Shown: positions 23,582-35,016 of the stretch, in pieces
How the letters are laid out: the number at the start of each line of letters is the position of its first letter
Numbering within the stretch: position 1 is the first letter of the stretch
NCBI GenBank assembly: GCA_964415355.1
Contig: CAYPYS010000003.1
Coordinates: 4,156-68,155 of the forward strand
Origin: an uncultured Planctomycetia bacterium
GTDB taxonomy: Bacteria > Omnitrophota > Gorgyraeia > Gorgyraeales > Gorgyraeaceae
Direction: 5' to 3'
Length of the DNA stretch: 64,000 nucleotides
Made by a program: the position numbers and the translations under genes
The notes under the pieces: model-generated
Databases searched by the model: none
What the model was told of the DNA's origin: nothing
What the model saw: the letters and a program-made list of their open reading frames with translations, nothing else

Positions 23582-24628
23582 TTATTTATATCTTTTGAAG
23601 AGCCCTAAAAATACATCCCCTATTTGATCTTTTATTATACCCAAAACTCTTCGATATTCTTCAATAGACTTCCCGATTGGATCGGGAATGTCCTGCTTTT
23701 CTTTTAAAAGCCTGACTTTGGATTCCGCCGCCGGCCACATGTTTAAGATAATATCTCTTTGCGAGCGCTCCATTACGTAAATAACATCTGACTTCTGCAA
23801 TAGGGGCATAGTAACAGACTTTCCTCTATGCATTGATACGTCCACTCCTTCTTCCTGCATGACCTGTATAGTGTTAGGCGCTGCAGGGATGTTCAGATAA
23901 GAAAGCGTGCCTGCAGAATCTACTTTGACTTTTTCTGAAAGCCCTGCTTCTTTTAAAAGTTTCTCCAGAATCCCTTCCGACATAACACTTCTGCAGCTAT
24001 TTCCAGTACATACAAAAAGCACATAGTGATCAACCAGAAGGTCCTCTTTTGGTATCGCACCTTCTCTCACTACCTTAAATGGATCTACGCTGACGTCCAG
24101 TATGGTGGATTCCGTTCCTATCTCCGCACGGCCTCCATCTAATATTATATCAACAGATCCTTTCATGTCAGAAATGGCCTCTTCTGCTGAAACCGGAGGC
24201 TTCCTGCCCGAAATATTCGCGCTTGGAGCGACTACCGGATCGACTGTTTCATTTATAAGTGCCAGGGCGACCTCATTTCTGGGCATACGGATACCTATTT
24301 TCTTTTTCTCTTTATTTTCTGCCAAGATCGTCAATGGACCAGGCCAAAACTTATGCACTATCTTTAAGGCCCTGTCGTTTAAATCAACTCCTAATTCTTT
24401 CAGTGTCTCAAACCTCGCGATGTGAAACGTAAAAGGTTTGTTTTTTGGCCTCTTTTTTATCTTATACAGTTTATCTATAGTCTTTTTATTCAAAGCATTC
24501 GCACCAATGCCATAAACGGTCTCTGTGGGAAAAACAACAAGGCCGCCTTTTCGCAAGACATCAGCCGCCTCTTTTATTAATCCCTCCTCTTTAGCATTGG
24601 GGCTTATCTTTATAATCCTAGTCTGCAT
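23582..24628 (-). CDS. L-threonylcarbamoyladenylate synthase (Sua5/TsaC/YwlC) fused to a low-molecular-weight protein tyrosine/arginine phosphatase domain
   Basis: YrdC domain (VVFPTETVYGIGANA ... KKRPKNKPFTFHIA) followed by the LMW-PTP P-loop VLFVCTGNSCRS. Start taken at MQTRIIK. Confidence 0.75.
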   Translation of the reverse strand: MQTRIIKISPNAKEEGLIKEAADVLRKGGLVVFPTETVYGIGANALNKKTIDKLYKIKKRPKNKPFTFHIARFETLKELGVDLNDRALKIVHKFWPGPLTILAENKEKKKIGIRMPRNEVALALINETVDPVVAPSANISGRKPPVSAEEAISDMKGSVDIILDGGRAEIGTESTILDVSVDPFKVVREGAIPKEDLLVDHYVLFVCTGNSCRSVMSEGILEKLLKEAGLSEKVKVDSAGTLSYLNIPAAPNTIQVMQEEGVDVSMHRGKSVTMPLLQKSDVIYVMERSQRDIILNMWPAAESKVRLLKEKQDIPDPIGKSIEEYRRVLGIIKDQIGDVFLGLFKRYK

Positions 24629-24632
24629 AATT

Positions 24633-25064
24633 TTATAATAAATCCAATATCCTTTTCGCGAAGATCGCCGCATTCTTAGCGCCTGATTTTCCTATGGCCA
24701 TACTGGCAACAGGGACACCTGCCGGCATCTGCACCGTCGACAAAAGCGAATCCAGGCCTTTTAATGCCTTTGTATGCATTGGAACGCCTATAACAGGTAA
24801 TTCCGTATACGCGCTAACTACCCCTGCCAGGGCCGCGGACATACCTGCTCCGCATATTAAAACCTTAATCCCTTTTTTCTTGGCAGACCTTGCATATTTT
24901 CGCACGGCATCCGGCGTCCTATGAGCTGAAAGCACATTCAGTTCATAAGGCACCTTGAAATCCTTGAGTATCTTTTCTGTCTCATGTATGGTTTCCGTGT
25001 CAGATTTACTCCCTATCAGTATACCAACCAGGGGTTTCTTTTTAGCTACCATCTTCTCCTCCAT
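24633..25064 (-). CDS. purE: N5-carboxyaminoimidazole ribonucleotide mutase
   Basis: LVGILIGSKSD ... the PurE fold. Confidence 0.9.
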   Translation of the reverse strand: MEEKMVAKKKPLVGILIGSKSDTETIHETEKILKDFKVPYELNVLSAHRTPDAVRKYARSAKKKGIKVLICGAGMSAALAGVVSAYTELPVIGVPMHTKALKGLDSLLSTVQMPAGVPVASMAIGKSGAKNAAIFAKRILDLL

Positions 25065-25069
25065 TTCCT

Positions 25070-25104
25070 AACTTTACACTTTAACGTTGTTGAAATGTAA
25101 ACTT
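25070..25104. repeat. 35-bp palindromic intergenic repeat, copy 11 (form B, 1 substitution)
   Basis: ...gaaatgtaaactt. Confidence 0.95.
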
Positions 25105-27397
25105 AGTGTCTGTTAATGGCCTTGTCTCCTATGTCGCTCCTGTATTGCATGCCTTCGAAATCGATTTTCTTTACTGCGTTGTATGCATTTTTTTTAGCGG
25201 ATTTGATGTCATCCCCCATGGCCGTCACGCCCAATACCCTACCGCCACTTGTAAATATTTTTCCATCTTCAAGGATGGTGCCTGCATGAAACACCTCGGC
25301 GTCTTTTAATTTCTTAGCTTCTCCCAGTCCTCGTATTTCTTTATGCTTTTCGTAAAAGCCGGGATATCCTTTAGACGCACAGACAATGCACAAACACGGC
25401 CTGTCATCCCATTTAAGATCCGCTTTATCGAGATTACCGTCTATGCACGCTGTTATCGCATCCACCAGGTCTGATTTTAATCTAGGCAAAATAGCCTGGG
25501 TTTCAGGATCTCCGAATCTTACGTTAAACTCTAAGACCATCGGACCCTTTTTAGTGATCATAATGCCGCCGTATAATACGCCTCTATAGAATTTACCTTC
25601 TTTTGAAAATCCGTAAATAATGGGCCTAAAAACCTTCTCGATGATCTCATCGAATATTTTTCCTGACACGACAGGCGCCGGTGAATAAGCACCCATGCCG
25701 CCCGTATTGCCCGAAACCACTACTCTATTATTTCTCCTTATTACTACGAATCCTGTTGATACTGTAACACATCCTATATTCCCTTTGTAATCAACTAATT
25801 CTATATTGTATTTTCTAATAGATGTCTTATTCTTTTTTTTCATCTCTATTGAATAAACAGGCCTTGCTTTATATTTCTTTTTGTTCAAAGGATTAATCAT
25901 TGTTTTTCTTTTATCGACAGTTATTATTCCAGAACAGCCTAGCTTAACTATCATCTCTTGTATATCGTCGATTAACCTTCGAGAACCACTACAGAATCTC
26001 ATCTTACCCCGATGTATATCTCCATCTCCGAAATTAAAAGCTTTGAGAAATTCTAATAATACTTCTTTTCTTGACTGTTTTATATAATTTGGGATGTATT
26101 TTGAATAAGAAATCCCAAATCTTGATAAATATATAGCCAATTGTGTCGAGTTTATTCTAAATTTATGACTCTTCTCTTCATAAATAAATCTAAAAGGGAG
26201 CTTACTAATAATCTTTTTAATATTATTAAAATTTTTTGATTTTCTCATCTGCGAGATATAAACCCTTTTAGAGCCTTCACCTTTTGTAACATAGCCCTCT
26301 GATAAATAAATAGCGAGAAATTTAGCCCAATTGATAAAATTAATTTTTAATTTCTTAAATTTACGATTAAACTTATAATCATATTCTGGCAAAATAAAAT
26401 ATCTAGGATTTCTCCCTGTCCACGAGCCTGACTGATAGATATAATTTTCTCCCTTGTAATCCCTTGCTTCTACTACATACAATCTCTCTTTTCCTCTCCT
26501 TTGCTGAACTAACATTCTATGATTAGGCGTTACAGTTAAATCTATATTTCTATTTCTGAAATTGATCATATTACCTTTATATCTCATCCAATATTTTTTT
26601 AACGGCTTTTCAAAGAAAATTTTTCTAGAATACGGATCGAATACTGCCACTTCAACTTCTCTCTCTAATTTATTAAACCGCTTCCATCCATTATTGGTTA
26701 ATATTTCAGTATCTTCAGAATAACAATTAGGTCCCTTGTCGCCATCAAAAATCCTCTTGTGGTCCTGCGAAGACACAAGAGGCACTATGTTTCTTCCGTC
26801 GCTAAAAACCAATATAGACGCCTCTTCTCCGTCAAGACACTCCTCTATAATAATCCTCTCCCCTGAAGAGCCAAAGATCTTCTTGACCAGCATAGAGTCT
26901 ATTGCCTCTTCTGCCTCTTCAATGGTTTTTGCCACTATAACGCCCTTGCCAGCTGCAAGCCCATCCGCCTTCACGACTACAGGCGCGCATTTTTCTTTTA
27001 AATATTTTTTTGCATCCTTGGCATCGCTGAAGACCCTGAAATCTGCCGTAGGCACGTTAAACCTCTTCATGGTCTCTTTTGCAAAAATCTTACTCCCCTC
27101 AAGCATTGCAAGTTCTTTAGAAGGTCCAAATACCTTCAGGCCTTCTCTTGAAAATATATCTACTACGCCCTTCACCAGCGGCACCTCAGGCCCTACTAAA
27201 GTCAGGTCAACTTTATTCTGTTTTGCAAAATTCAAGAGGCCATCGATATCGTCTGCTTTTATCGGGACTACCTCTGCGATTTGTTTCATGCCGCCATTTC
27301 CAGGCGCGCAGAATATTTTATCGACCTTCCTGCTCTGCGCAATTTTCCAGACCAGGGCATGCTCTCTGCCGCCCGAGCCGATTACTAAAACTTTCAT
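25103..27397 (-). CDS. purD: Phosphoribosylamine--glycine ligase interrupted by an in-frame intein (764 aa precursor; ~424 aa after splicing)
   Basis: The N-extein ends ...KRIFDGDKGPN and the C-extein starts TGGMGAYSPAPVV, which together restore the conserved PurD motif GPNTGGMGAY. The 340 aa in between are intein-like. Confidence 0.85.
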   Translation of the reverse strand: MKVLVIGSGGREHALVWKIAQSRKVDKIFCAPGNGGMKQIAEVVPIKADDIDGLLNFAKQNKVDLTLVGPEVPLVKGVVDIFSREGLKVFGPSKELAMLEGSKIFAKETMKRFNVPTADFRVFSDAKDAKKYLKEKCAPVVVKADGLAAGKGVIVAKTIEEAEEAIDSMLVKKIFGSSGERIIIEECLDGEEASILVFSDGRNIVPLVSSQDHKRIFDGDKGPNCYSEDTEILTNNGWKRFNKLEREVEVAVFDPYSRKIFFEKPLKKYWMRYKGNMINFRNRNIDLTVTPNHRMLVQQRRGKERLYVVEARDYKGENYIYQSGSWTGRNPRYFILPEYDYKFNRKFKKLKINFINWAKFLAIYLSEGYVTKGEGSKRVYISQMRKSKNFNNIKKIISKLPFRFIYEEKSHKFRINSTQLAIYLSRFGISYSKYIPNYIKQSRKEVLLEFLKAFNFGDGDIHRGKMRFCSGSRRLIDDIQEMIVKLGCSGIITVDKRKTMINPLNKKKYKARPVYSIEMKKKNKTSIRKYNIELVDYKGNIGCVTVSTGFVVIRRNNRVVVSGNTGGMGAYSPAPVVSGKIFDEIIEKVFRPIIYGFSKEGKFYRGVLYGGIMITKKGPMVLEFNVRFGDPETQAILPRLKSDLVDAITACIDGNLDKADLKWDDRPCLCIVCASKGYPGFYEKHKEIRGLGEAKKLKDAEVFHAGTILEDGKIFTSGGRVLGVTAMGDDIKSAKKNAYNAVKKIDFEGMQYRSDIGDKAINRH
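25706..26725 (-). mobile_element. Intein with LAGLIDADG-type homing endonuclease domain inserted in purD (precursor aa 225–564)
   Basis: N-terminal splicing block CYSEDTEIL (Cys1), block B TPNHRML (TxxH), two LAGLIDADG-like blocks (LAIYLSEGYV, FLKAFNFGDGDI), C-terminal ...VVVSGN followed by Thr+1. The intein DNA is visibly more AT-rich than the flanking purD. Confidence 0.75.

Positions 27398-34734: not shown

Positions 34735-35016
<282 letters not shown>

Follow-up and report, generated by a model that had tools for sequence, protein, structure and literature searches.

In a 64,000-nucleotide stretch of DNA from an uncultured Planctomycetia bacterium (GTDB lineage Omnitrophota, Gorgyraeia; assembly GCA_964415355.1, contig CAYPYS010000003.1, positions 4,156 to 68,155 of the forward strand; this whole stretch is called the window hereafter), the purine-biosynthesis gene purD is interrupted by an in-frame insert of 340 codons. 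We consider, with a probability of roughly 0.9, that this insert is a genuine, probably splicing-competent class 1 intein equipped with a LAGLIDADG homing endonuclease and lodged in the putative ATP-phosphate-binding loop GPN|TGGMG of PurD. The precursor is organised as follows:

25103..27397, minus strand: purD precursor open reading frame (ORF), 764 aa plus stop, comprising N-extein, intein and C-extein
26726..27397, minus strand: N-extein, PurD residues 1-224, with the C-terminal end ...QDHKRIFDGDKGPN
25706..26725, minus strand: intein, 340 aa from Cys1 to Asn340, precursor residues 225-564
25106..25705, minus strand: C-extein, residues 225-424 of spliced PurD, beginning TGGMGAYSPA, with Thr+1 at 25703..25705

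In the translation of this ORF, the PurD reading is broken after ...DGDKGPN and resumes at TGGMGAYSPA past the insert, whose coordinates (25706-26725) and length had been given exactly in the original prediction, a reading of the bare letters that had also compared the 764-aa ORF with the ~425 aa expected of PurD and proposed that removal of the insert restores GPNTGGMGAY. Deletion of the insert in silico indeed yielded a PurD of 424 aa with a contiguous GPN|TGGMGAY, whose exteins are collinear with solved PurDs and with intein-less orthologs. The spliced protein scored 543 bits against the NCBIfam equivalog TIGR00877 purD (cutoff 288) and aligned end to end with solved PurDs in the PDB (best match 2yrw, E 7.6e-145). 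It contains the Pfam domains GARS_N, GARS_A and GARS_C, the second of which is cut in two by the insert. The gene belongs to an intact pur operon with the order purQ-purM-purD-purE and is the only purD copy within the window. Moreover, 10 contigs of up to 172 kb, drawn from several JGI and ENA samples, encode the same 764-aa protein without a single difference, which rules out an assembly artefact.

In human GARS, Asn229 and Arg220 contact the ATP phosphates (PMC2978367), and equal spacing to the QDHKR motif suggests that Asn224, the -1 residue of the insertion, is the counterpart of Asn229. In addition, Asp212 and Lys214 of Aquifex aeolicus PurD are said to bind glycine and ATP/Mg (PMC8880213), and Asp212 and Lys214 of the window's PurD share their residue numbers, a match of numbering and not of alignment. 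Since the insertion adjoins these presumed ATP- and glycine-binding residues, the unspliced PurD precursor is expected to be inactive.

The insert opens with CYSEDTEILT and closes with ...VVVSGN, directly followed by Thr+1. The elements below were located within it, the domain borders being approximate, as read off the secondary structure of a predicted model:

26342..26725, minus strand: N-terminal part of the HINT domain (intein 1 to ~128), matching intein_Nterm and all-beta in the model
26723..26725, minus strand: block A, Cys1, invariant in the clade of relatives described below
26510..26542, minus strand: block B, DLTVTPNHRML, with Thr66 and His69; TPNHRML corresponds to intein 65-71
25925..26341, minus strand: LAGLIDADG homing-endonuclease domain (intein ~129-267), supported by the LAGLIDADG_3, PI-PkoII and I-DmoI matches
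26291..26323, minus strand: LAGLIDADG motif 1, KFLAIYLSEGY (intein 135-145), acidic residue Glu143
26018..26050, minus strand: LAGLIDADG motif 2, FLKAFNFGDGD (intein 226-236), acidic residue Asp234
25706..25924, minus strand: C-terminal part of the HINT domain (intein 268-340), from alignment and model
25751..25789, minus strand: block F-like segment YKGNIGCVTVSTG, with Cys319 at F:4, in a register set by pattern and not by superposition
25706..25750, minus strand: block G, FVVIRRNNRVVVSGN, with Ser338, Gly339 and Asn340

Block B thus carries the Thr-x-x-His signature (T66-P-N-H69), and the C-terminal cyclising residue, Asn340, is in place. The hallmarks that had been listed for the insert, namely an initial Cys, TPNHRML, two LAGLIDADG motifs and an SGN end before Thr, can all be assigned to individual residues, and the endonuclease motifs, whose integrity had been left as a point to check, retain both acidic residues, Glu143 and Asp234. 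The higher AT content claimed for the insert is likewise evident: at 29.5%, its G+C content lies below that of the two exteins (45.2%) and of the window as a whole (42.2%), a drop that shows plainly in a sliding profile.

The identification as a LAGLIDADG intein, which the first reading had also proposed, agrees with profile and structure searches. The insert matched NCBIfam intein_Nterm (TIGR01445; 27.1 bits, cutoff 24.5) and Pfam LAGLIDADG_3 (30.1 bits, cutoff 22.5, E 6e-7). When the sequences of the PDB were searched, the endonuclease half aligned with PI-PkoII (E 4.6e-6), LSEGY and GDGD included, and the N-terminal splicing region aligned with the AceL NrdHF intein (E 0.003); a search with the C-terminal 59 residues (blocks F and G and the junction), meant to fix the block F register, returned chance matches only. 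An AlphaFold model of the intein, computed from an alignment of 18 clade members, reached a predicted local distance difference test (pLDDT) score of 93.6 and a predicted template-modelling (pTM) score of 0.92. Its top Foldseek matches in the PDB were all intein endonucleases (TliVMA, E 2.4e-16, followed by PhoVMA, PI-PkoII, PI-SceI and PI-PfuI), and the endonuclease domain matched I-DmoI (TM ~0.62 normalised to the target, E ~1e-6). According to this model, the intein folds as a HINT domain plus a two-motif LAGLIDADG endonuclease of pseudo-dimeric alpha-beta-beta-alpha-beta-beta-alpha topology.

Empty versions of the insertion site are common. Among the matches listed, the 120 closest PurD orthologs measure 420-441 aa and are hence intein-less, and those intein-less orthologs that are labelled Candidatus Omnitrophota or Omnitrophica are 79% identical or lower, which places the window in an uncultured member of that phylum. 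Two intein-less orthologs, 90% identical in amino acids and 88% in nucleotides and with the gene order kept, read uninterrupted GGACCTAAT|ACAGGCGGCATGGG, and the empty purD site of locus L006 reads TTTGATAATGACAAAGGACCTAAT|ACAGGCGGCATGGGCGCTTATTCA. Occupied sites were also found: inteins 52-89% identical to that of the window sit, in open frames, at the GPN|TGGMG junction of nine metagenomic PurD fragments and of at least 22 GTDB species-representative genomes, the latter retrieved in a scan with a four-sequence intein alignment. Nineteen of these 22 genomes show the N-side junction, the contigs of the other three ending inside the intein, and Thr+1 is present in all 22 other PurD copies.

Of the 22 hosts, four are bacteria of Omnitrophota type, one is a 'Diapherotrites' bin whose PurD is of bacterial type, and the other 17 are archaeal bins assigned to Thermoplasmata/Thermoplasmatales, Altiarchaeota, Methanosarcinales, Woesearchaeota, Nanoarchaeia, Aenigmatarchaeota, Micrarchaeota, Iainarchaeum and Promethearchaeia/Promethearchaeota (Asgard), with one unclassified archaeon. 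Two bacterial loci recorded as 'uncultured Planctomycetia bacterium', L008 and L014, have exteins 88% and 75-78% identical to the Omnitrophota-type PurD of the window; they are probably Omnitrophota relatives whose taxon labels understate the kinship. The exteins of the 'Diapherotrites' locus (L015; PEXL01000010.1, 'Candidatus Diapherotrites archaeon CG08') are 52-55% identical to the window's, include TGGMGAYSPA and are of bacterial type, which points either to uptake of a bacterial purD or to a mis-binned contig. A scan of viral contigs revealed no PurD intein and no viral vector, the matches there being distant clade relatives alone (20-35% identity).

Sixteen long PurD-like matches from a set of 1.84 billion representative proteins were read individually and proved to be mostly pur-domain fusions, C-terminal extensions and internal inserts, and no additional inteins, the exceptions being P0201, P0202 and the two-intein protein P0212. 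The last of these (1152 aa) is a divergent PurD-like ATP-grasp protein, with a GARS_A score of 44.6 bits after in-silico splicing, that holds two inteins of the PurD-intein clade. One lies at GPN|TG(E)MG, the same site as in PurD, and the other at EFT|CRFGYP, the counterpart of the PurD EFNxRFGDPE motif. This second site is also filled in Gribaldobacteria/Patescibacteria and Woesearchaeota bins (..LEWT|CRFGFP..; L031 3001-4050, L032 3001-4047, L033 1230-2276).

Beyond PurD, relatives of the intein reside in FolE (GTP cyclohydrolase I), ThyX/ThyA, DNA polymerase A, RpoB, class II ribonucleotide reductase (RNR), DNA methylases and a phage prohead protease, and all of them end in Gly-Asn (GN). 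Each of the 35 full-length relatives runs from Cys1 to Gly-Asn, and the next residue is Cys in 19 of them, Thr in 10 and Ser in 6. When 18 diverse clade members were aligned, Cys1, His69, Asp234, Gly339 and Asn340, and also Gly144, proved invariant, with Thr66 of block B at least 90% conserved and Glu or Asp at position 143; a Cys at the F:4-like position occurs in 15 of the 18, and Ser or Asp in some of the others. Furthermore, wherever a PurD copy covers the LAGLIDADG motifs, their two acidic residues are retained. Since GN ends all 35 relatives, Gly339 is best regarded as an ancestral, selected trait of the clade and not as decay. The original prediction had described the penultimate His as replaced by Gly; the Gly is certainly there, but it is not a substitution particular to this copy.

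The nearest relatives outside PurD are the FolE inteins (~30% identity; L034-L039, P0011-P0026), which occupy the site ..(A/E)HL|CM.MRG... Their hosts are Ktedonobacteria, Chloroflexia and Actinomycetota bins, where the inteins are GC-adapted (53-56%).

Splicing without a penultimate His is reportedly the subject of Chen, Benner and Perler 2000 (J Biol Chem 275:20431), to judge by its title, and is said to occur in the Ssp DnaE intein, to judge by the reference-list entry for Sun et al. 2005. In one review, the penultimate His counts among the residues that assist splicing, and studies of splicing in its absence are cited (PMC4031507). The missing G:6 His does not bar the insert from being an intein, given that His-less splicing is documented. 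As for the splicing class, class 3 inteins are defined by having no N-terminal nucleophile (PMC7891396, PMC4031507), and AceL NrdHF is a proven member with Met-Cys-Thr instead of the usual Trp-Cys-Thr (WCT) triplet (PMC7891396). Across inteins, Asp is the commonest F:4 residue and Cys the second commonest (PMC4031507). At the triplet positions (Trp B:12, Cys F:4, Thr G:5), the PurD intein has Met71, Cys319 and Ser338, of which Cys alone fits, in a register set by pattern, and its N-terminal nucleophile, Cys1, is invariant. The PurD intein was filed as class 1 because Cys1 is invariant and the F:4 Cys is not universal in the clade.

Comparison of inteins with their hosts points to mobility. Relative to the archaeal copies, the window's intein is 53-68% identical whereas its N- and C-exteins are only 30-42% identical, in line with the horizontal acquisition suggested from base composition at the outset. 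Bootstrapped neighbour-joining (NJ) trees recover the PurD inteins as a monophyletic group with 100/100 support and join the Omnitrophota inteins to the ones from Thermoplasmata (98/100) and Altiarchaeota (83/100), while the extein tree mostly splits by domain. The bacterial inteins therefore seem nested among archaeal ones, which suggests a transfer from archaea to Omnitrophota. Compared with the nearest intein-bearing relative (L008 465..1484), the synonymous divergence (dS) is 0.30 in the intein and 0.72 and 1.02 in the flanking exteins, values that fit a younger common ancestor of the intein than of the gene and a possible recent exchange within Omnitrophota. Intein G+C content (27-39%) falls below that of its own exteins (32-57%) in 22 of 22 hosts. 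Taken together, the sporadic distribution, the empty cognate sites in close relatives and the incongruent phylogenies of intein and host indicate, from sequence comparison, a mobile element.

Both domains of the intein are under purifying selection. The ratio of nonsynonymous to synonymous divergence (dN/dS) against L008 is 0.17 for the whole intein, 0.19 for the HINT domain and 0.15 for the endonuclease; against more distant copies it is 0.05-0.17 for the whole intein. The exteins, at 0.06-0.08, are strongly constrained. These low values and the retained acidic residues argue that the endonuclease is being maintained, as in an element that still homes. The DNA flanking the insertion follows the consensus GAyaAaGGnCCnAAT|ACnGGnGGnATGGG, fixed at codon positions 1 and 2, and one endonuclease could plausibly home across domains because this target encodes a peptide motif invariant in Bacteria and Archaea.

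By analogy with characterised inteins, the 764-aa precursor, once translated, would undergo an N-S acyl shift at Cys1, helped by Thr66 and His69 of block B. The Thr+1 hydroxyl would then attack the thioester to give a branched intermediate, and cyclisation of Asn340, achieved without help from a penultimate His, would free the 340-aa intein. An O-N shift would finally leave a native Asn-Thr bond in the ATP-binding loop and an active 424-aa PurD. The freed 40-kDa intein, with Glu143 and Asp234, would cut intein-less purD at ...GGnCCnAAT|ACnGGnGGnATGGG..., and repair would copy the intein in.

Several points weigh against a splicing, mobile intein. Both splicing and DNA cleavage by the PurD intein are activities that we infer from characterised inteins. 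The penultimate His (G:6), common though not obligatory, is absent, Gly339 standing in its place, and Thr is the rarest C-extein nucleophile at +1. The NCBIfam C-terminal intein model found no match to the insert at E<=1, and Pfam Intein_splicing and Hint_2 stayed below their cutoffs; such weak scores with generic profiles may be one reason why these genes are unnamed or called 'hypothetical protein' in their sources. Regarding the transfer, the trees are NJ trees on short alignments, the Omnitrophota inteins are monophyletic in only 71 of 100 replicates, and midpoint rooting puts the exteins of L015 ('Diapherotrites') and of L021 and L024 (Woesearchaeota/Nanoarchaeia) on the side of the bacteria. 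The low intein dS could stem partly from strong AT and codon bias, with possible saturation effects, and not from recent transfer. Additionally, the taxon names are the labels of metagenome-assembled genome records, in which two Omnitrophota-like genomes are called 'Planctomycetia' and a 'Diapherotrites' one has a bacterial-type PurD.

Other explanations of the insert were weighed against the same data. Its weak or absent matches to generic C-terminal and HINT profiles, together with the lack of a penultimate His, might betray a decaying, splicing-dead remnant within a purD pseudogene or inactive enzyme. We consider this highly improbable, given that the frame is open here and in 22 other genomes, the catalytic residues are all conserved, GN is the rule of the clade, dN/dS is 0.05-0.19 in both intein domains (0.06-0.08 in the exteins), and purD stands as the sole copy in the window in an intact pur operon. 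A native lineage-specific PurD domain, the alternative that the original prediction itself had raised, or an assembly chimera, has the bare fact of the insertion in its favour and nothing more, and its likelihood is practically negligible: both the fold and the profile searches lead to inteins and LAGLIDADG enzymes, the identical protein recurs on 10 contigs from independent samples, and related elements occur in hosts as unrelated as FolE, ThyX, DNA polymerase A, RpoB and prohead protease. A third proposal concerns the chemistry, with Cys319 of block F taking over the N-extein as a branched thioester before its passage to Thr+1, in a class 3-like route or an intermediate between classes 1 and 3. 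An F:4-like Cys shared by 15 of the 18 clade members, the missing penultimate His, a G:5 residue (Ser or Cys) chemically near the Thr of class 3, and a best solved N-terminal match to AceL NrdHF, a class 3 intein with Met at B:12 like Met71, are all compatible with such a route. It nevertheless seems very unlikely, as Cys1 is invariant in 35 relatives while class 3 is defined by the absence of an N-terminal nucleophile, the F:4 Cys is exchanged for Ser or Asp in some members and is in any case the second commonest residue there overall (PMC4031507), and the F:4 register is set by pattern only.

Finally, the intein might have been co-opted as a conditional switch that gates splicing, and with it purine synthesis, for instance by redox through a Cys1-Cys319 disulfide, a role compatible with a selfish element. 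The intein adjoins a presumed ATP-contacting residue of an essential enzyme, two conserved Cys are predicted near the active site, redox-gated inteins have precedent (PMC6195587), and Novikova et al. ascribe functional meaning to the clustering of inteins in ATP-binding sites (PMC4760082). Yet the sporadic distribution, even among orthologs 90% identical, and an intact, selected endonuclease with cross-domain transfer are the signature of a homing parasite and not of a fixed regulator, which makes this proposal quite unlikely. We rejected class 3 membership on account of the invariant Cys1, a pseudogene on account of the open frame and low dN/dS, and a native domain or assembly artefact on account of the fold and the 10 contigs, and retain the class 1 LAGLIDADG intein as the favoured explanation. 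A bolder idea is that the Cys1...Cys(F:4)...(Ser/Cys)-Gly-Asn clade bridges classes 1 and 3, by way of a block-F branched intermediate or of a Cys1-Cys319 disulfide that makes PurD maturation conditional, and, separately, that the jump between archaea and Omnitrophota records contact between predator or epibiont and host; we hold it to be unlikely.

Among solved structures, PI-PkoII (2cw7), TliVMA and PhoVMA (7qsu and 7qst), PI-PfuI (1dq3) and PI-SceI (1vde) resemble the PurD intein in having a HINT domain interrupted by a two-motif LAGLIDADG endonuclease, and share with it Cys1, the TxxH of block B and the terminal Asn (Foldseek E 1e-11 to 2e-16 for these archaeal-type inteins). They differ in sequence (10-15% identity) and in host, which here is PurD and not a DNA polymerase, VMA ATPase or RNR. 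At 340 aa the PurD intein is also smaller and, to go by length alone, probably has none of the additional DNA-recognition or stirrup domains found in PI-SceI and PI-PfuI, and it has a penultimate Gly where the solved inteins would be expected to have His. The FolE/ThyX/ThyA/PolA/RpoB/RNR/methylase/prohead clade is closer, at 24-35% identity over the full 340 aa. This metagenomic GN clade shares with the PurD intein its length, block pattern, C-terminal VRRNGK..(S/C)GN and LAGLIDADG domain, but differs in host genes and sites, the PurD inteins forming a clade of their own (100/100). AceL NrdHF (6zgq) is similar in its SPNHRM (TPNHRM in the PurD intein), Met at B:12 and Cys at the F:4-like position. 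In contrast to the PurD intein, which is contiguous, with an invariant Cys1, Ser at G:5 and an endonuclease, it is naturally split and of class 3, with no N-terminal Cys, a branch point at Cys124 and Thr at G:5. Inteins that splice without a penultimate His, in hosts unrelated to PurD, provide the precedent that the G:6 His is dispensable for Asn cyclisation.

What appears to be new is PurD as host and insertion site, the element itself being an ordinary class-1-type LAGLIDADG intein. The searchable full-text literature yielded no report of a PurD intein, nor does the main text of the Novikova survey mention PurD (PMC4760082), and an InBase entry is possible. Matches to 'purD' in that literature are most likely other words starting with 'purd', the one paper checked containing no whole-word 'purD'. 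PurD had initially been described as not known to be a commonly reported intein host, which holds as far as the searchable literature is concerned; the window's case is not unique, with PurD inteins in 22 GTDB species genomes.

According to Novikova et al., inteins are biased towards ATP-binding sites and nucleotide metabolism (PMC4760082), a pattern that the addition of a core purine-biosynthesis enzyme and the ATP-grasp fold to the intein hosts fits and extends. The allele is common to Omnitrophota and to Thermoplasmata, DPANN, Asgard and methanogen bins and is far better conserved than its host gene, which makes it a clear instance of homing across domains into a target that is conserved universally. 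Some Omnitrophota live as epibionts or predators of archaea, among them Methanosaeta, attaching to their hosts and killing them (PMC10066038), and a link between this lifestyle and intein transfer is speculation on our part. The Gly-Asn end of the clade, with Thr, Ser or Cys at +1, offers compact (340 aa) natural cases for Asn cyclisation without a penultimate His. For annotation, uninformative names and splitting by gene callers or contig ends mean that PurD could be wrongly scored as absent in pathway reconstructions. The understanding of inteins in general is unchanged, and the interest of the PurD intein rests on its cross-domain spread.

Two gene fusions were noted in the surroundings of purD. 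A Sua5/YciO/YrdC domain is fused to a low-molecular-weight phosphatase domain at 23582..24673 on the minus strand (363 aa in the ORF list, 348 aa in the gene call), and a 968-aa fusion of PurS and PurL (formylglycinamide ribonucleotide (FGAR) amidotransferase) lies upstream of purQ (L001 1..1199).

The window also contains a second selfish element, a group I intron of 205 nt in a tRNA-Met(CAU) gene (Rfam RF00028, 70.7 bits, E 6.5e-16):

34735..35016, minus strand: intron-split tRNA-Met(CAU) gene, with 5' exon 34983..35016, intron 34778..34982 and 3' exon 34735..34777

The intron lies between nucleotides 33 and 34, directly 5' of the anticodon, and has no ORF inside; it resembles the introns of cyanobacterial tRNA-fMet genes. 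The joined exons form a 77-nt tRNA-Met (ARAGORN) that shows two initiator features, a C1xA72 mismatch and an anticodon stem with three G-C pairs. The split gene is located between purB and an ftsB-like gene plus eno.

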